Source: an uncultured virus (IMG/VR IMGVR_UViG_3300008624_000520) (Duplodnaviria > Heunggongvirae > Uroviricota > Caudoviricetes). From it: a DNA stretch of 20,000 nt. Location of the stretch: the IMG/VR virus record IMGVR_UViG_3300008624_000520, positions 52,100-72,099 of that record. One strand, 5' to 3'. Under the pieces are notes generated by a model. That model made no database searches. It saw nothing but the letters and a program-made list of their open reading frames with translations, and had not been told where the DNA came from. This document shows, piece after piece, positions 5,840 to 20,000 of this stretch. The position numbers were made by a program, and so were the translations under genes. Positions within the stretch are counted from its first letter, which is position 1, and each line of letters opens with the position of its first letter.

Positions 5840-6178
5840 TTAATTCTTAGTTATTTCGTTTAGTACCTTTTTATTTATAAAGTCTGGTTGTATAAGACCA
5901 GATCCAAACTTAGAATTATAAGCATTTAATAAATTTTTATCAGGATCGTAAACTGAAATTATATGATTAGGAAATATAGGAACTTTGTGCTGTTTTGCAA
6001 AGGGAGCGTAAGGAGCTAGGCCTACACCAAACTCATCTTCACTACCTGGTTTAGGCATCATTAGGATAACTGCTGGTTTCTCTACAAGTAAAAATGCTTT
6101 ACCATCTATTTCTGTATCTGAAACCTGCCCTATAATGTCCTCACCTGAGGTTAGTTTAATAATCTGAACGTTTGCCAT
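5840..6178 (-). CDS. Conserved T4-like phage hypothetical protein (IIKLTSGEDIIG type)
   Basis: SD AGGAG; the N-terminal KLxSGEDII pattern and the position after hsp20 resemble marine T4-like phages. Confidence 0.75.
   Translation of the reverse strand: MANVQIIKLTSGEDIIGQVSDTEIDGKAFLLVEKPAVILMMPKPGSEDEFGVGLAPYAPFAKQHKVPIFPNHIISVYDPDKNLLNAYNSKFGSGLIQPDFINKKVLNEITKN
5872..5879 (-). promoter_or_regulatory. Possible T4 late promoter TATAAATA just upstream of the nuclease gene
   Basis: Exact TATAAATA on the minus strand ~30 nt before the GTG start, but intragenic and in AT-rich DNA. Confidence 0.4.
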
Positions 6179-6193: not shown

Positions 6194-6652
6194 TTATTTA
6201 GTTTTTATTTCAATTGATTTAGGCTTTTTGGCCTCTGGTATTTCATTTACCAAAGATACTGTCAAAACCCCGTCTTTTAACTTGGCACCTTTTACTACTA
6301 CGGTGTCAGCCAAAGACCAGGAGCGCGTGAATTTACGTTCAGCTATTCCTTTGTGTATAAAGTTGTCAGGTGTGCCGTCTATGCAGCCCTGAAGTTGATC
6401 TCCCTTAATAGTAAGTGTTCCATCCTCTACTGTAACATCTAGATCTTCTTCTTTGAAACCAGCAAGTGCTAGTTGTATTTCAAATTTCTCGTCATCTATT
6501 TTTTGAATGTTAAAAGGTGGAAAGTTATTATTTACCGGCTCAAAGTCCTTTTGAAGTAAATCAAAGACTCTGTTGAATCCGATAAATTGTCTTTCTATTT
6601 GTGGGAAGGTGTGGACGAAATTGTCCCAATTCGCTGTGGTTAGTTTTACCAT
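6194..6652 (-). CDS. hsp20: Small heat shock protein Hsp20 (IbpA-like)
   Basis: FPPFNI, EIQLALAGF, HKGIAERKFTRSWSL, GAKLKDGVLTV; alpha-crystallin domain. Confidence 0.95.
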   Translation of the reverse strand: MVKLTTANWDNFVHTFPQIERQFIGFNRVFDLLQKDFEPVNNNFPPFNIQKIDDEKFEIQLALAGFKEEDLDVTVEDGTLTIKGDQLQGCIDGTPDNFIHKGIAERKFTRSWSLADTVVVKGAKLKDGVLTVSLVNEIPEAKKPKSIEIKTK

Positions 6653-6658
6653 TGTTTT

Positions 6659-6674
6659 CTCCTTATTAAGCGAG
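6659..6674 (-). promoter_or_regulatory. ROSE-like SD-sequestering hairpin (candidate RNA thermometer) at the hsp20 RBS
   Basis: Minus strand CUC(G)CU-UAAUA-AGGAG: the UCGCU motif pairs with the SD, leaving a bulged G. Confidence 0.6.
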
Positions 6675-6676
6675 TT

Positions 6677-6704
6677 AAAAAATGGACACCCTTTCGGCGT
6701 GTCC
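6677..6704 (-). terminator. Hairpin with GAAA tetraloop plus U-tract (terminator/attenuator-like) in the hsp20 leader
   Basis: Minus strand GGACAC-G-CC-GAAA-GG-GTGTCC-A-TTTTTT. Confidence 0.6.
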
Positions 6705-6860
6705 TCTTAGGATGATCAGGGGGTGCAGTTTCAAAGTCTTTAGCGTTAAAACTAATTCATCTTCAGTTTTCCCCCCATCACAAACTGCTGGTCTCATTTC
6801 AATCCATCCAGTAGCGCCTGTTTAACCAAGCATTCCTGCGTTGTTTTTCGACTTCGCATT
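6677..6860 (-). ncRNA. Candidate structured RNA or long structured leader between a late promoter and hsp20
   Basis: Longest non-coding gap in an otherwise packed region, with several complementary segments, a late promoter at the 5' end and a hairpin/U-tract at the 3' end. Confidence 0.45.
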
Positions 6861-6861
6861 T

Positions 6862-7530
6862 TTATTTATACGCAGAAGAATTTCTAGACACCATTTTATC
6901 CCTAATTTGGTCCTCTATGGGTAAATTTCTGAACCATAAGTTCATTGCGTACTTCTCTCCTGCTAATACCGGTTGTGCTTGATGCATTGTTTTAGGATCA
7001 GGAACCTGTGTTCCTATGACTGTATTGCTAAATACCACACATCTACCTGCTTTGGGTTTGACCCCCTTACCTAACTCTGTAAATACTGTGGCACCACCAT
7101 CTGTCACATCATTACAATATAAAAGAACCGTTGCTACTCTATTTCCTTTTGTTCCATGTGGTCCTGTGTGGGCTCGTTCTGTATTTATAGGAAAAGCATC
7201 TAAGTGGGCATCATATTCCTCTCCTAATTCGTAATGTAATGCTTGCACATTTTCTGCTTGTGTGTGATGTAATTGTGTTAATTGAGATGCTCTCAATAAA
7301 AAGTGAACGGCTGTTACGCTTTTCCTATAATCCAACCAGCCCATTTGATTTGTTCTTGCATAATGTTCGTAATCATCACCTTCCTTTCCTTGTGTGACTC
7401 TGCCACGAGTCCATTCAACATTATCTTCCATATCTTTTATCAGTTGCTTACATTCAGGCTTACTCATAAAATTATCCCAAACCATAATCGTTGGGTTGAA
7501 TAAACTAATTACCTGTTTTAATTCTGCCAT
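6862..7530 (-). CDS. 2OG-Fe(II) oxygenase, prolyl 4-hydroxylase-like
   Basis: YDAHLD (HxD), RVATVLLYCNDVTDGGATVF, distal His in TMHQAQPV, GEKYAMNLWFR. Likely start ATG 7530 (SD GGTGGA). Confidence 0.92.
   Translation of the reverse strand: MAELKQVISLFNPTIMVWDNFMSKPECKQLIKDMEDNVEWTRGRVTQGKEGDDYEHYARTNQMGWLDYRKSVTAVHFLLRASQLTQLHHTQAENVQALHYELGEEYDAHLDAFPINTERAHTGPHGTKGNRVATVLLYCNDVTDGGATVFTELGKGVKPKAGRCVVFSNTVIGTQVPDPKTMHQAQPVLAGEKYAMNLWFRNLPIEDQIRDKMVSRNSSAYK
6863..6870 (-). promoter_or_regulatory. T4 late promoter TATAAATA
   Basis: Exact consensus overlapping the stop codon of the 2OG gene, facing the hsp20 leader. Confidence 0.7.
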
Positions 7531-8818
7531 AAAATCCACCTAGTTCAGGAAAGGTTTTTATAAAATCTGTTCCCCTTCTCCTGTCATGTTCATCTACAAA
7601 GCTAACAAAATCGTTTCTTTGTACTTCTAATTCTTTTCCTTTAAATCTATTTGCTTTAATCCAATCAACTGTTCTTTTAAATTTCATTATTTCATAAGTT
7701 TGATATATATGATCGAAGTCTCGCATAGTTTCTAAACTATTGTCTAACATACTTATAACATTATCGTCTGCAATCCTAGCAGTTAGGTGTAATGGTTCAA
7801 CCATATTAGGCATATCTACTGTAATTAAATCACCATAAGTATTTTTCAATTCTGCTACTTTAAATATGAACTCATCAAAGTTAGGAATAGATAAGAAACA
7901 AAAAGTACACATGATTCCTACAGGTATGCCTGCTGCTAAAACTCTATGTAGGTTCTGTTCAAACCTATTCATTTTTAAACCATTCCTTATATACTCTGCT
8001 TGGTCGCCCCAGCTGTCTATACTGACATAACATTTTTGGCCAGGCAAATCTGCAACTAACCTGATGTATTCTAAAACTCTCCTTTCAGTCACCATCAAAT
8101 TTGTGCTTATTTCGAAAGATAAGTTCTCTTTAGGATGCTCTTTAACATACTCCAATAGCTTAAACGTATTATTGTCTAATAAGGGTTCTCCACCCGTCAA
8201 GCGTATAGTATTTAGGTGTGGATATGCCTCAGGCAACCACTTCCAAAACTTCTTAACGTCGGGGTTCTGTGAGGGTGCTAGAATGTCATTTCTTGTTTGA
8301 TACTTATCGTGATTTGGCTTGCTTTTTAAGTCATATGTTCCATACTTGTCTAACTCCTTTTGCCATGTAGAACTCTTTCCTGCCCCACAATAACTACATG
8401 ACATTTGACATTTATTAGTGAAACTAACCGTCAAATACCTTGGCCATACATCTTCCTCAGGAGGAATTGATGCTGTTTTTGCTATTAAGTCTGGATCGTC
8501 TTTTAAAAACTGTACAGCGAGCATTTGTCTGTCGCTAAAGTTTCCTGTTTTTTCTATATTATAACAATAAGCGTCTTCTGCGGGTTTACCGCCTTCTAAC
8601 ATTTCTTGTCTTACTGCTTTGGTATAGGGTGTGTTGTGTAGATCGCTTTGTGAAGGGATTTTATGTTGGGGACAATGATAGCATGAATGCTTTAGTCCTT
8701 CTGCTAAACTCAATTCCAAATAATACCACTTTAATAAACAGAATCCTGGACCTATCTCGTCCAAATCATTTTTTATTTTACTTAACCAGTATTCCTGATT
8801 ATTTAATTTTCTTGCCAA
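7505..8818 (-). CDS. Radical SAM protein with an N-terminal Cys-containing (twitch-like) region
   Basis: CQMSCSYC (CxxxCxxC), LTGGEPLL, ISTN, VSIDSWG...YIRNG. The TTG start is uncertain. Confidence 0.88.
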   Translation of the reverse strand: MARKLNNQEYWLSKIKNDLDEIGPGFCLLKWYYLELSLAEGLKHSCYHCPQHKIPSQSDLHNTPYTKAVRQEMLEGGKPAEDAYCYNIEKTGNFSDRQMLAVQFLKDDPDLIAKTASIPPEEDVWPRYLTVSFTNKCQMSCSYCGAGKSSTWQKELDKYGTYDLKSKPNHDKYQTRNDILAPSQNPDVKKFWKWLPEAYPHLNTIRLTGGEPLLDNNTFKLLEYVKEHPKENLSFEISTNLMVTERRVLEYIRLVADLPGQKCYVSIDSWGDQAEYIRNGLKMNRFEQNLHRVLAAGIPVGIMCTFCFLSIPNFDEFIFKVAELKNTYGDLITVDMPNMVEPLHLTARIADDNVISMLDNSLETMRDFDHIYQTYEIMKFKRTVDWIKANRFKGKELEVQRNDFVSFVDEHDRRRGTDFIKTFPELGGFYGRIKTGN

Positions 8819-9272: not shown

Positions 9273-9732
9273 CTTTACCGCCTTTAGACGTATTAAGGTA
9301 TAGTTTTATAACATCAATATCAGTGTCTGATAAAAGTCTTAAAGCTTCTTTTGCTTTATTAAAACTATATCCAAAAAAGCGCTGTATCGCGTCAATGTTC
9401 TCCTCTTCAGATTTTAACCACTTATTATATCTTTTTGCTTTTCGTACTACTTCTCTTAAGAAATCGTACTGCAATTTTTTATCTAGATGAGATCTAGAAT
9501 TCATTTCATTGCCTGCAATAACTGTATCAGGCCCCATTCCCATAGCTCTATTTACAATAAAAGCATTATATTCATTCTCAGTTCTCTCATCAACTATTAA
9601 ATCTTCTTTACTAAAATTAATGGAATTCACAAAGTCAAAAGGAGAAATCTTCTTCAATTTCTCCTGGAATTGATCTTCAACGATCTCCTCTACGGGATCG
9701 CCAAACCCTTCTAATATTGCTTTATCAACCAT
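9268..9732 (-). CDS. gp62: Clamp loader small subunit
   Basis: SPFDFVNSIN, YNAFIVNRAM, NEMN, QYDFL, GYSFNKAKEAL, C-terminal KGG; located between gp44 and regA. Confidence 0.92.
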   Translation of the reverse strand: MVDKAILEGFGDPVEEIVEDQFQEKLKKISPFDFVNSINFSKEDLIVDERTENEYNAFIVNRAMGMGPDTVIAGNEMNSRSHLDKKLQYDFLREVVRKAKRYNKWLKSEEENIDAIQRFFGYSFNKAKEALRLLSDTDIDVIKLYLNTSKGGKV

Positions 9733-11177: not shown

Positions 11178-11798
11178 CTAGCCAAATTTCTCCTTTACAG
11201 AAGTCGAATCTGAAAAGTTCAACTCTATATTAGTACCGACACTATCATACTCGTCAGACATTACTGCTACTTCTGTAGCTGCCTCTTGTACATGTTGCAT
11301 TACATTTTCAGGTGTACTTATGTCGTAAGGATCGTCTTCAGCATTGTCTTGGAAACCTTCTTCAACAAATGACTTAACTATTGTTCCGTCAGTTACTATT
11401 GCTGCATATCTCCAGGACCTCATTCCAAATCCTAAATTATCTTTTCGGACATCCATGCCCATCTTAATTGTAAACTCACCACTACCATCAGGTATCAGTT
11501 TAACATTTACAATTTCCTGTTTCTCTTTCCACTCTTCCATAACGAATGTATCATTAACACTAACACAATAGATATCATCTATGCCTAGTTCTCTAAACTC
11601 AGAATATAGCTCTTCAAATCCAGGAAGTTGTTGTCCTGAACATGTAGGAGTAAATGCTCCTGGCAAACCAAAAACTATTACTGTCTTATCTTTAAACAGA
11701 TCATCTGTTGTTAATGTAGTCCATTTAAAACCCTCTGTTGCGTGGGTTATTCTTCTATGGAATGTTGCTTGTGGAATTTCTTCTGGCAATCTACTCAT
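11178..11798 (-). CDS. Peroxiredoxin (Prx5/Redoxin type)
   Basis: LPGAFTPTCS peroxidatic motif, CVSVNDTFVM, PDGSGEFT, GFGMRSWRYA. Confidence 0.95.
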   Translation of the reverse strand: MSRLPEEIPQATFHRRITHATEGFKWTTLTTDDLFKDKTVIVFGLPGAFTPTCSGQQLPGFEELYSEFRELGIDDIYCVSVNDTFVMEEWKEKQEIVNVKLIPDGSGEFTIKMGMDVRKDNLGFGMRSWRYAAIVTDGTIVKSFVEEGFQDNAEDDPYDISTPENVMQHVQEAATEVAVMSDEYDSVGTNIELNFSDSTSVKEKFG

Positions 11799-12709: not shown

Positions 12710-13668
12710 TAGTTAAGAGTACCAAAACCATCTAATTCAAACTCAATTTTATATGCTAAGTCTTGATGGCATTTAACTCCTGGATGCAACAAATCTCTTC
12801 CTACATCATCTAAGCCCAACCCAGGTGGTGGCTCTTTTTCTTGCATAGGTTTTAATATTGTTTCACTCATTACTTGTAGAGCCTCTTCAGGATCTGCTGG
12901 TAATGTAACACCAACTCCAGGTATGTGTTGGTGTATTAAAGTTAGGTCGTCTGCATAATTATATGTAGATTCTTTTGACATGTCTGCTGGGTCGTCAGAC
13001 GTTCCGTTAATCCATAGTATAGGTATGTTCCAATTCTCTCCTAGTCTAATTATGGTTTTCATCATTATCATATGTTGCCATTTTGCTACGCCCAAAGATT
13101 GATATAAAAAGAGTAGTTCTTTCTCTTTACTGTCTGGTTTGAGTGCCGCTGGTATATAATCTATATTCTTTACACTAACCGGAACATCTGGAATGCCTAC
13201 AGAAATGCCTGTAGAATTTTGTGAACCAATTAATACCATATGTTTAGGCGGTGTTTTCCAATACTTACTTAGTTGTAAAAGGTTAAAGGGTAAGTTCTCT
13301 AGTCTACCACCATAAGTAGATGCATTATAGAAAGGAATGCCCATTCTTTCTTCTAAAATTTTGTGATATAAATCTCTGTTATGTAGTCCAGGACCTACAC
13401 CAATGCATTCTGTAGAACATAAGACCCAATCACCGTCCAAATCTGCCACTTCATGATCGGATCTGAAACCCAGAGAGTCAAATTTATAAGTAATGGGATC
13501 ACTCTCGTTGTCATAATATTTCCACGTAGGTCCATACTTTTCTCTCGCTTTATTAAACCAGTCCCATGATTCATGTAACAACCACTTATATTCTTCTTTG
13601 GGATCTGCTTGGTAAGATATTAAACCGTGTTTTCCTAGGGTTATTTTTTGTAGTGGAACATTATTCAT
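12706..13668 (-). CDS. Hypothetical protein, divergent SGNH/GDSL-like (320 aa)
   Basis: YKFDSLGFRS N-terminal pattern and C-terminal RDLLHPG (DxxH); block I is degenerate (STECIGVG). Confidence 0.5.
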   Translation of the reverse strand: MNNVPLQKITLGKHGLISYQADPKEEYKWLLHESWDWFNKAREKYGPTWKYYDNESDPITYKFDSLGFRSDHEVADLDGDWVLCSTECIGVGPGLHNRDLYHKILEERMGIPFYNASTYGGRLENLPFNLLQLSKYWKTPPKHMVLIGSQNSTGISVGIPDVPVSVKNIDYIPAALKPDSKEKELLFLYQSLGVAKWQHMIMMKTIIRLGENWNIPILWINGTSDDPADMSKESTYNYADDLTLIHQHIPGVGVTLPADPEEALQVMSETILKPMQEKEPPPGLGLDDVGRDLLHPGVKCHQDLAYKIEFELDGFGTLNY

Positions 13669-14425
13669 TCTTGAATTCAGGGGGCCTCTTTTCTATAAAT
13701 GAGGCTATGCCTTCTTCTATATCTTTTGACTCTAGACACATGTCCTTAGCCCAAAGAGCAAAGTCAATGGCTTCATCCATATTAGAGTTTACTGTATGCC
13801 ATACTGCTCCCTTAGTCCCCCTCACAGCTATTGGTCCACACTCTGTGGCTATACGATGTGCAAAGGCTAAAGCTCTCTCATCAACGTCTCCATGGCATAC
13901 CATATTACATAGTCCTACTCTCTCCAACCACCAAACATCATGCTCGTCACCTGGCATCATAAAAGAAATAGCTCTATTAGAACCTATTCTTTGTGTCAAT
14001 TTAACTTGCATAGTAACAGCATTGAAACCTAATTTAGTTTCAGGACACATGAATCTGCTAGTCTCATCTGCGAAAACAAAATCACTAGCTAACATCAATC
14101 CAAAACCCTCTCCTATACACCAGCCTTTAATTGCTGATATAATTGGTTTAGGTGTTACCATATCGTTATCTGATAATAGAAAACCCCAACCCTCTTTTAG
14201 TCCTTGATGTATTGTCTTAACATCAAAACCTGCTGTAAAATGGTTGGGATTGCCGGATCGTATGACAAGAACCCTAGCTTCATCGTCATCTCTGAACTGA
14301 ACTAGGGCGTCATTGTATCCTGCGTAAAAGGGTTTGTCTAAGATATTTAAAGGACCGACACCGTTTATTGTTAAAACGGCGACGTGGTCGTTTAAATCGT
14401 AAGTGATTCTCTCACCAAATTCCAT
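13661..14425 (-). CDS. Enoyl-CoA hydratase/isomerase (crotonase superfamily)
   Basis: FTAGFDV, PKPIISAIKGWCIGEG, ASDFVFA, F.CPETKLG, EGIASFIEKRPPEF. Confidence 0.93.
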   Translation of the reverse strand: MEFGERITYDLNDHVAVLTINGVGPLNILDKPFYAGYNDALVQFRDDDEARVLVIRSGNPNHFTAGFDVKTIHQGLKEGWGFLLSDNDMVTPKPIISAIKGWCIGEGFGLMLASDFVFADETSRFMCPETKLGFNAVTMQVKLTQRIGSNRAISFMMPGDEHDVWWLERVGLCNMVCHGDVDERALAFAHRIATECGPIAVRGTKGAVWHTVNSNMDEAIDFALWAKDMCLESKDIEEGIASFIEKRPPEFKNE

Positions 14426-19052: not shown

Positions 19053-20000
19053 TTAGATGCTTAAGTCAAAAGAAATGAGGAATTCTCGTCCGCCAGCAGC
19101 ATATTCTGGCAGAATTTCGAATTTTTTATTGAAAATGTCCCTGATCTGTAACCCTATCCTGTACCTGGGTCCTAGGTAGTAACCTAGAGTTAGGTCTAAG
19201 GTTGATACATCATCTATAGGCCGGTTGGCATAATCCAAACCCTTTTCAAACTCACCTATATAGACTATTCCATAGTCAATTTTGCCAAACGTATTTGAAT
19301 AACTTAGTTTGGTCTTATACTTGGGTGATTGAAGTTTATCTGTATCTGTATATTGAACTAATATACTATAATTTTCATATGATTTATTGAACTTAAACCC
19401 TGAGGATTCATAACTGCCTGTATTGATATATTGATAGTCAGCAAAATTAAAATCTATTCCGTCGCTAAACTCGTAATGCCAAATTGTAATGCCCTTCCAT
19501 CCTACTTCTAAACCTACACCCTTTTCAGGATTTAAAAGTGAATTAGGTTTAACCATTTGGTCTCCAAACCTTTCATATAAATTAGGAAGTCTATAACTAT
19601 TCCCTAATGAAAATCTAAAATCTTTTACTTCAACACCTGTTCTTATTGTTTGAGCGTCATCTTCGTAACGATATCCTATCCCAAATTTATATGGAACGAC
19701 AGATGTTCTTACTTTAGCTTCTTGTTCTTTAAACCAGTTAAAATAGACTCCTGTTCTCCAAGCCTGATATCTTGTAGGGACTGGAGATCTAAAATAGTAA
19801 TCATAATCTTCTTGTTGTGCTGTTACGCCTGTTAAGAAATTTTTATATTTGTACTTTGCGTCTGCAAATATACGAGAACTTTTAACACCCCAACCTGTAT
19901 TATGTTTTGCACTATTTAAATTGTATCCTAGGGTGAACCAATCATTCCTAATAGATATATCTGTTTTATAACCTGATTGATTACAATCATTATATTCTAT
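19053..20000 (-). CDS. TonB-dependent outer-membrane receptor, C-terminal beta-barrel part (5' end outside the window)
   Basis: The frame is open from 20000 to the stop at 19053, longer than the ORF track shows. It contains SLGNSYRLPNLYERFG...NSLLNPEKGVGLEVG, YINTG, IRDIFNKKFE and terminal GREFLISFDLSI, with alternating aromatic beta-strands. Confidence 0.85.
   Translation of the reverse strand: MEYNDCNQSGYKTDISIRNDWFTLGYNLNSAKHNTGWGVKSSRIFADAKYKYKNFLTGVTAQQEDYDYYFRSPVPTRYQAWRTGVYFNWFKEQEAKVRTSVVPYKFGIGYRYEDDAQTIRTGVEVKDFRFSLGNSYRLPNLYERFGDQMVKPNSLLNPEKGVGLEVGWKGITIWHYEFSDGIDFNFADYQYINTGSYESSGFKFNKSYENYSILVQYTDTDKLQSPKYKTKLSYSNTFGKIDYGIVYIGEFEKGLDYANRPIDDVSTLDLTLGYYLGPRYRIGLQIRDIFNKKFEILPEYAAGGREFLISFDLSI

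Follow-up and report, generated by a model that had tools for sequence, protein, structure and literature searches.

The leader of Pseudomonas ibpA carries the thermometer ROSE_3, which PMC3669281 describes as two hairpins in 61–62 nt, with a U(U/C)GCU motif placed on the Shine-Dalgarno sequence; its 5′ hairpin is proposed there to stabilise the mRNA. In classical ROSE elements, the extra 5′ structures are said to help folding or stability (PMC4166951, PMC3669281). IbpA itself is reported to bind its own 5′ UTR through Arg93 and to repress its own translation (PMC10474464), a self-repression so far shown only in gammaproteobacteria. Structured hsp20 leaders in phages are also already on record, since PMC10690425 lists 19 candidate structured RNAs at most 25 bp from HSP20 genes of DNA viruses. 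Of these, the 18 with a checked length measure 29–93 nt, which is the scale of the ROSE-like part of the leader described here; this comparison draws on the tables of that work, and pieces of the module described below may be among its other candidates. In the titles and abstracts surveyed on hsp20, phages, non-coding RNA and late promoters, the present element is not described.

The gap between the oxygenase and hsp20 genes

The window, a stretch of 20,000 nt, comes from a 72-kb virus record whose minus strand encodes T4-like RegA, clamp loaders, sliding clamp and DNA polymerase. The runs and samples holding the stretch are marine or aquatic. Within the window, a 2OG-Fe(II) oxygenase gene and hsp20 are separated by 209 nt (6653–6861), the largest gap among those of the 25 main minus-strand ORFs. 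The first-pass annotation had called this gap anomalous and stated that genes elsewhere overlap or abut; the size of the gap does stand out, but the second statement is overstated, as nine other gaps measure 55–112 nt. From 5′ to 3′, the gap contains a late promoter (6870–6863), a two-domain module of ~146 nt (6857–6712) and a two-hairpin ROSE_3-like leader (6704–6659). The features are as follows.

6862–7539, minus strand: upstream 2OG-Fe(II) oxygenase gene (PF13640, E 1.3e-15), whose stop codon overlaps the late promoter
6863–6870, minus strand: T4-type late promoter box TATAAATA, also located before hsp20 in relatives
6787–6857, minus strand: domain 1 of the module, an irregular nested rod (from RNAalifold and pair counts) with variable sequence and conserved structure
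6816–6831, minus strand: apical hairpin of domain 1, 5 bp with a 6-nt loop (pairing p 0.98–1.0), showing the clearest covariation
6712–6781, minus strand: domain 2 of the module, with a G/C-rich closing helix (6781–6771/6723–6712), A-rich internal loops and a variable apical hairpin
6740–6759 (approximate place), minus strand: ~16 nt of extra sequence in the window's variant only, supplying the AAAACUGA/UUAGUUUU hairpin
6684–6704, minus strand: ROSE-like hairpin I, GAAA-capped, followed by A and U6 (6682–6677); a weak terminator-like match
6659–6674, minus strand: ROSE-like hairpin II, in which UCGCU (6673–6669) pairs with the Shine-Dalgarno AGGAG (6663–6659) with a G bulged
6194–6652, minus strand: hsp20, encoding an IbpA-like small heat-shock protein of 152 aa (PF00011, phrog_432)

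Host-type genes are also present in the window, namely an enoyl-CoA hydratase (13661–14425), a redoxin (11178–11798), a piece of a TonB-dependent receptor (19053–19556) and a radical SAM protein (7505–8818), and may aid host assignment. ARAGORN found 0 tRNA or tmRNA genes in the window; one tRNA-Thr gene lies outside it, elsewhere in the 72-kb genome.

In T4 late promoter numbering, position −13 falls on the box's first T (PMC2988020), so the predicted +1 is at 6857. By itself, the TATAAATA box is no more frequent in the window than chance would allow (6 copies against 3.2 expected; 18 of 200 shuffles), and all six copies are on the coding strand. The five further boxes lie at window positions 5872, 7182, 9265, 10692 and 14806, and the genome as a whole has 15, of which the minus strand carries 14.

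Transcript data consist of assembled contigs from eight of the 22 runs found; such contigs carry no strand, single-transcript or level information, and run X6 bears a flag as probable DNA. The first contig base is 6857 in runs X1, X2 and X6 (studies P1, P2 and P4) and 6847 in X5, while those of X3, X8, X14 and X4 start further down (6836, 6761, 6735 and 6699). The U-run is bridged into hsp20 in six of the eight runs, and the X2 contig spans 6857 to the hsp20 stop codon. The stretch 6858–8200 is without contig cover in the eight runs, and missing RNA cover there is no proof of silence. Taken together, the contigs weakly show a 5′ end at 6857 and continuity with hsp20. As the first-pass annotation proposed, the RNA most likely starts at the T4-type late promoter, with the contigs that start at the predicted +1 giving a weak hint of this. 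Two contigs have unusual ends. One from X3, with a depth of 203, joins 6771 back to 6836 via four extra letters, making a 70-nt loop; a circular form could explain it, as could a library or assembly error at the G-run. The other, from X4, stops at an adapter inside hairpin I (6699), which marks either a reverse-transcription stop or a processing site.

The ROSE_3 model scores 22.3 bits in the window and 21–30.3 bits in four relatives, and the Rfam gathering threshold of 43 bits is not reached; by its anatomy the element is predicted to be a ROSE_3-like thermometer and is not filed as a ROSE_3 member. Hairpin I forms with p 0.98–1.0 at 10–42 °C in 15 modelled leaders, with or without the module, and also precedes hsp20 in phages lacking the module. 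This GAAA hairpin and its U6 had been taken as the terminator of the module's RNA. That reading is not supported, since the hairpin corresponds to ROSE_3-like hairpin I, occurs in module-free relatives and is bridged by the contigs of six runs; it is better read as ROSE hairpin I. Folding at 10–42 °C gave inconsistent temperature trends, and when 30 nt of CDS were added, a rival pairing opened the UCGCU/AGGAG helix in several models. A consistent effect of the module on Shine-Dalgarno access was not found in these folding models.

Fold of the module

Ten distinct variants of the module (type A), including that of the window, were aligned (alignment A3). RNAalifold on A3 gave a nested 5′ rod and a separate 3′ domain, in agreement with a hand-drawn nested fold, which is paired in 92.7% of 381 cells compared with 31–48% in slid controls. 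Two-sided changes occur in 11 of its 40 pairs (22 cells), a level that none of 500 shuffles reached; both kinds of control are lenient, because the variants are related to one another and also served to derive the fold. Every two-sided change falls in domain 1; one of them, at columns 4/105, is spurious and comes from L007 being misaligned by one base.

Domain 1 is paired from +1 onwards by a basal helix (6857–6856/6788–6787), followed by the pairs 6852–6850/6793–6791 and 6838–6836/6811–6809. At its apical hairpin, the column pairs 47/62, 50/59 and 51/58 have changed on both sides, and the hairpin is missing in one of the 10 variants (L325). The predicted +1 is located at, or a few bases from, the start of a helix in short leaders, type A and type B. 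Domain 1 is also the most divergent part of the locus, with a mean identity of 64%; the upstream gene reaches 80%, and the ROSE part and CDS 93%. In L008/L009 a whole segment of domain 1 is swapped for a different, fully paired one, and indels are found among the variants as well.

Domain 2 is nearly invariant across type A, loops included. Covariation was not found in it within the 10 type-A variants, because its sequence hardly varies. An interdigitated T-loop platform, as in RNase P, the T-box and the L1 stalk, is formed by two T-loops flanking an internal loop. In the domain-2 loop, UGAAA is conserved on the 3′ strand, and the 5′ strand varies and is shortened in L007.

Every pairing proposed in the first-pass annotation can form at its coordinates in the window sequence. 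Its structured RNA of ~190 nt is upheld by a fold conserved in 10 variants, but the pairing scheme differs from the one proposed. Among the helices listed, the GCUUG/CAGGC hairpin, the G/C helix and the GAAA hairpin are conserved, whereas the UGCG/CGCA helix (82.5% paired on A3), the CUACUGG/CCAGCAG helix (72.4%) and the AAAACUGA/UUAGUUUU hairpin fail. The enclosed AAAACUGA/UUAGUUUU hairpin is not conserved and depends on the window-only insertion of ~16 nt, in which its 3′ arm sits. Three of the proposed helices taken together are 79.8% paired, with a covariation score matched by 203 of 500 shuffles. Covariation among homologues is borne out for domain 1 of the nested fold, but not for these three helices or for the crossing helix considered below.

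Likewise, folding better than shuffled controls holds for the full 194-nt stretch (z −2.43; 5 of 200 shuffles), partly owing to the ROSE-like hairpin, but is weak for the module alone in the window (z −1.34; 14 of 150 shuffles as good). For the module by itself, z ranges from −0.99 to −5.1 over the 10 type-A variants, with values below −2 in four. In the window, three competing structures (unconstrained minimum, comparative fold, crossing fold) differ by no more than 0.7 kcal/mol at 15 °C and 2.5 kcal/mol at 37 °C. Single-sequence folding is not decisive because these alternatives are so close and the z values modest.

A loop–loop pairing of the domain-1 loop with domain 2 reaches 6 bp only in the window, as judged by eye. 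In addition, a pairing between the inter-domain linker and the early CDS appears in some folds and was rejected: it cannot covary, and synonymous variation in this part of the CDS (1 of 12 codons, compared with 21% overall) does not point to unusual conservation. The stretch is a conserved structured RNA, as seen in its fold, its position, its optional presence and its ROSE-like anatomy.

Relatives and other inserts at the same site

An Hsp20 search gave 24 viral loci, 12 of them at 88–100% identity. Among these 12, the module is unchanged in five, variant in six (five distinct) and cleanly missing in L012, whose Hsp20 is 88% identical. Distant Hsp20 relatives (57–64%) mostly contain the promoter, about five bases and then the hairpin. 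A metagenome pattern scan yielded 64 matches, comprising 12 true leaders and 52 chance hits; its pattern demanded motif and hairpin and was blind to modules elsewhere. The distinct variants number 14, of which 10 are type A and four type B, each located between TATAAATA and the hsp20 hairpin. On an Hsp20 tree of 36 rows, the length from box to start codon is 57–61 nt in 21, 85–93 nt in two and 145–439 nt in 13, frequencies that are not unbiased, as the motif scan contributed two rows and four distant ones were hand-picked. The long leaders are of type A in seven rows and type B in three (205–263-nt inserts), the others being L074 and L104/L131. The module is an optional insert, and the site takes different inserts.

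The type-B inserts, each consisting of a three-way 5′ domain and a domain-2-like 3′ domain, are located as follows.

L089, 1233–1437: type-B insert
L097, 1178–1440: type-B insert with a three-hairpin expansion
L309, 821–1025, minus strand: type-B insert
L405, 912–1116: type-B insert

The type-B 3′ domain adjoins hairpin I, has loop motifs similar to those of domain 2, and possesses a closing helix that shows two-sided changes when L089 is compared with L097. With the type-A domain-2 model, L089 came first among 27 loci (E 0.25), and the full model over 66 loci gave E 0.79. Restricted to leaders, the domain-2 model gave E 0.0008 for L089, 0.055 for L309 and 0.27 for L097, all rough values for a likeness seen before testing, and no match in L131. 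Type B was not found by a sequence-only profile of either domain. Homology between the 3′ domains of types A and B, judged from these sequences, is likely but unproven.

Two distant relatives contain a different insert of ~340–380 nt between TATAAATA and the hsp20 leader (L104:1040–1480, L131:1020–1490), with repeated tetraloop-like motifs, conserved sequence blocks and possible long-range pairing; it has no Rfam match and no match in phage records. A third insert at the same site (L074:1365–1443) is 87 nt long, rod-like and GGA-rich. Among the cultured T4-like phages Melnitz, Mosig, HTVC008M and C48C1, three carry a short leader behind TATAAATA, and none matches the module model. Directly upstream of the hsp20 late promoter, Melnitz (L352:1061–1160) and HTVC008M (L354:563–690) have a hairpin-rich, non-coding-looking stretch, which in Melnitz is annotated as a 34-aa hypothetical protein.

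The suggestion that the RNA is unrecognised agrees with the Rfam searches, in which the module matched no family. Rfam 15 (4227 families) left the module 6857–6712 unmatched (best E 6.2–7.1), as well as the corresponding part of the leaders L007, L010, L089 and L097, and the Rfam ROSE models did not match it. Over the window and its relatives, Rfam gave sub-threshold ROSE_3 only and no riboswitch family. BLASTN with the window, type-B and L131 leaders against 50,697 phage records returned 21–36-nt pieces or nothing. No module copy away from hsp20 was found in viral, GTDB and own-genome scans. A loose domain-2 pattern gave 120 loci from 40 of the 64 parts of the viral contigs scanned, and only five, already known, had motif, closing helix, promoter and hairpin. 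Promoter plus domain 1 as a pattern gave 12 loci (eight known, four by chance), the type-B start pattern 51 (five before hsp20, the other 46 without similarity) and the GTDB pattern scan 10 matches, none convincing. An exact 17-mer of the module occurs at 16 loci, 11 known and five unrelated.

The domain-2 17-mer is also present at L035:72–88 and L039:1501–1517, on the opposite strand just past the end of a psbA-like gene; these copies are probably due to chance. A second own-genome match of the model (window 9373–9488, E 0.07–0.1) lies inside a clamp-loader gene and was taken as chance. Resemblances to hammerhead, TPP, cobalamin, glycine, RNase P, box C/D k-turn and CsrB-like RNAs were discarded, the letters being paired or not conserved and Rfam silent.

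Possible roles and comparison with known systems

The reading favoured here, which we give roughly an even chance, is that the module forms an accessory 5′ extension of the ROSE-like hsp20 leader, likely stabilising the mRNA and binding a protein in cis. Transcription likely begins at 6857, and domain 1, whose pairing starts at the very first nucleotide, probably protects the 5′ end against decay, taking over the 5′-terminal-stem role that hairpin I would play in short-leader relatives. This shielding role is drawn from the mRNA-stabilising function proposed for hairpin I of ROSE_3 (PMC3669281). Domain 2 is a predicted protein-binding surface, because its loop letters are conserved beyond the needs of pairing, and hairpin II would melt with heat, freeing the Shine-Dalgarno sequence. 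On this view, the module would adjust how long the mRNA lasts and how strongly feedback represses it, and would not switch transcription. Against a cis-acting leader stands the dispensability of the module, absent from L012 at 88% Hsp20 identity, and against a plain stabiliser stand the conserved domain-2 loop letters, which it would not need.

By analogy with IbpA, phage Hsp20 would be the best candidate ligand of domain 2. It keeps equivalents of Arg93, Arg97 and the aromatic residue at 34, whereas Lys98 is Ser in the phage protein. Its Arg106 aligns with IbpA Arg93, in a column where IbpB differs, and is invariant in 22 relatives. The arginine does not link the protein to the module, because module-free relatives have it too.

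A rather unlikely alternative is a discrete trans-acting small RNA that borrows the strong late promoter, is freed by leaky termination at hairpin I and its U-run or by cleavage in the linker, and then acts as a decoy that occupies an RNA-binding protein of the host or the phage. Its self-contained fold and clean presence or absence are consistent with this, as is the occupation of the same site by different RNAs (type B, L074, L104/L131). In addition, a terminator pattern matches at 6700–6686 (2 found compared with 0.8 in shuffles), and leader contigs are deeper than CDS contigs in X3 (203, 72, 43.5), X5 (9.0 vs 3.9–4.7) and X6 (11.2 vs 4.0), but not in X8 (5.6 vs 6.4), which leaves room for partial termination or processing. 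However, contig depth cannot rank parts of a gene, and a shared 3′ end was not seen among the contigs of the eight runs. Moreover, most relatives have a short or broken U-run, L012 has a U-run in spite of lacking the module, and the module was never found away from hsp20. It is unlikely that the promoter–thermometer site acts as a cargo bay for exchangeable non-coding RNAs, with the module as a high-copy small RNA whose conserved domain 2, held in common with a distant type-B RNA, titrates a host factor (host IbpA, a translation factor or a defence protein); if so, phage heat-shock control and counter-defence would share one transcript.

An improbable reading is that the module is a passenger or selfish RNA inserting behind late promoters and folded only to spare the ROSE element or avoid nucleases. 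Its patchy occurrence on the Hsp20 tree (13 long leaders among 36 rows) and the divergence of domain 1, which outpaces its flanks and includes segment swaps and indels, would fit such an element. However, no transposase, endonuclease or second module copy was found in the 72-kb genome, and domain 2 is nearly invariant, loops included, and resembles the type-B 3′ domain.

The mutually exclusive pairings proposed in the first-pass annotation would make the leader a riboswitch or attenuator, in which alternative pairings, perhaps ligand-driven, control hsp20 read-through or translation. The crossing helix (6788–6782/6731–6725) is present in the window with 1-nt linkers, and there its fold lies close in energy to the minimum, as given above. 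The conserved loop letters could be an aptamer, and for Melnitz, a related phage, use of a glutamine riboswitch has been reported at another place (PMC9004378). However, the crossing helix is complete only in the window, with an ensemble p of 0.02–0.33; on A3 it is paired in 66.7% of cells, two of its seven pairs are broken in 7 and 9 of the 10 sequences, and covariation was looked for in the 10 variants and not found. The proposed switch is not supported by this comparison. Furthermore, hairpin I forms regardless of the module in all 15 modelled leaders, and neither a conserved anti-terminator or anti-anti-SD pairing nor an Rfam riboswitch match was found, which makes the riboswitch reading quite improbable.

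Very improbable is a functional unit of the upstream ORFs (21 and 40 aa), translationally coupled to hsp20: an ATG-started ORF of at least 12 aa begins at the first base in seven of the 10 type-A variants, but that ATG lies two bases upstream of the predicted +1, and codon-level conservation was checked and is absent, the ORFs measuring 13–62 aa, shifting frame through indels and differing in sequence, while substitutions preserve base pairs instead.

The locus highlights how marine T4-like phages place a bacterial-type, thermometer-like leader behind their own late promoter, and how optional folded RNA modules, missing from current libraries, extend it. The surprise is moderate, since similar unrelated extensions recur at the same site. 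Near-identical phages with and without the module (L006–L011 and L012) provide a natural comparison, and a leader this short lends itself to reporter assays and probing. Such work bears on the open ROSE question of what 5′ hairpins do, and on whether phage small heat-shock proteins self-regulate through RNA.

Compared with the intergenic structured non-coding RNAs of T4-like marine phages, namely wcaG, manA, PhotoRC-II, glnA and tmRNA, as reported in PMC10665884 and PMC9004378, the module is of the same general kind, but without an Rfam or ARAGORN match here. The 3′ part resembles Pseudomonas ibpA ROSE_3 (RF02523; PMC3669281, as described there) in its GC-rich hairpin I, its UCGCU/Shine-Dalgarno hairpin II within the last ~55 nt and its IbpA-like gene. 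The short leaders of L012, L075 and L084 measure 53–56 nt, compared with 61–62 nt in Pseudomonas ibpA. Unlike Pseudomonas ROSE_3, the window's element is phage-encoded, is preceded by a T4 late promoter and not by a heat-shock one, scores 22.3 of 43 bits and has an optional two-domain module of ~146 nt in front. Classical three- or four-hairpin ROSE elements (rhizobial ROSE1, E. coli ibpA), as presented in PMC4166951 and PMC3669281, likewise have stable 5′ structures before the thermosensing hairpin, whereas the extra part of the phage leader is longer, contains large conserved internal loops and is gained or lost as a unit.
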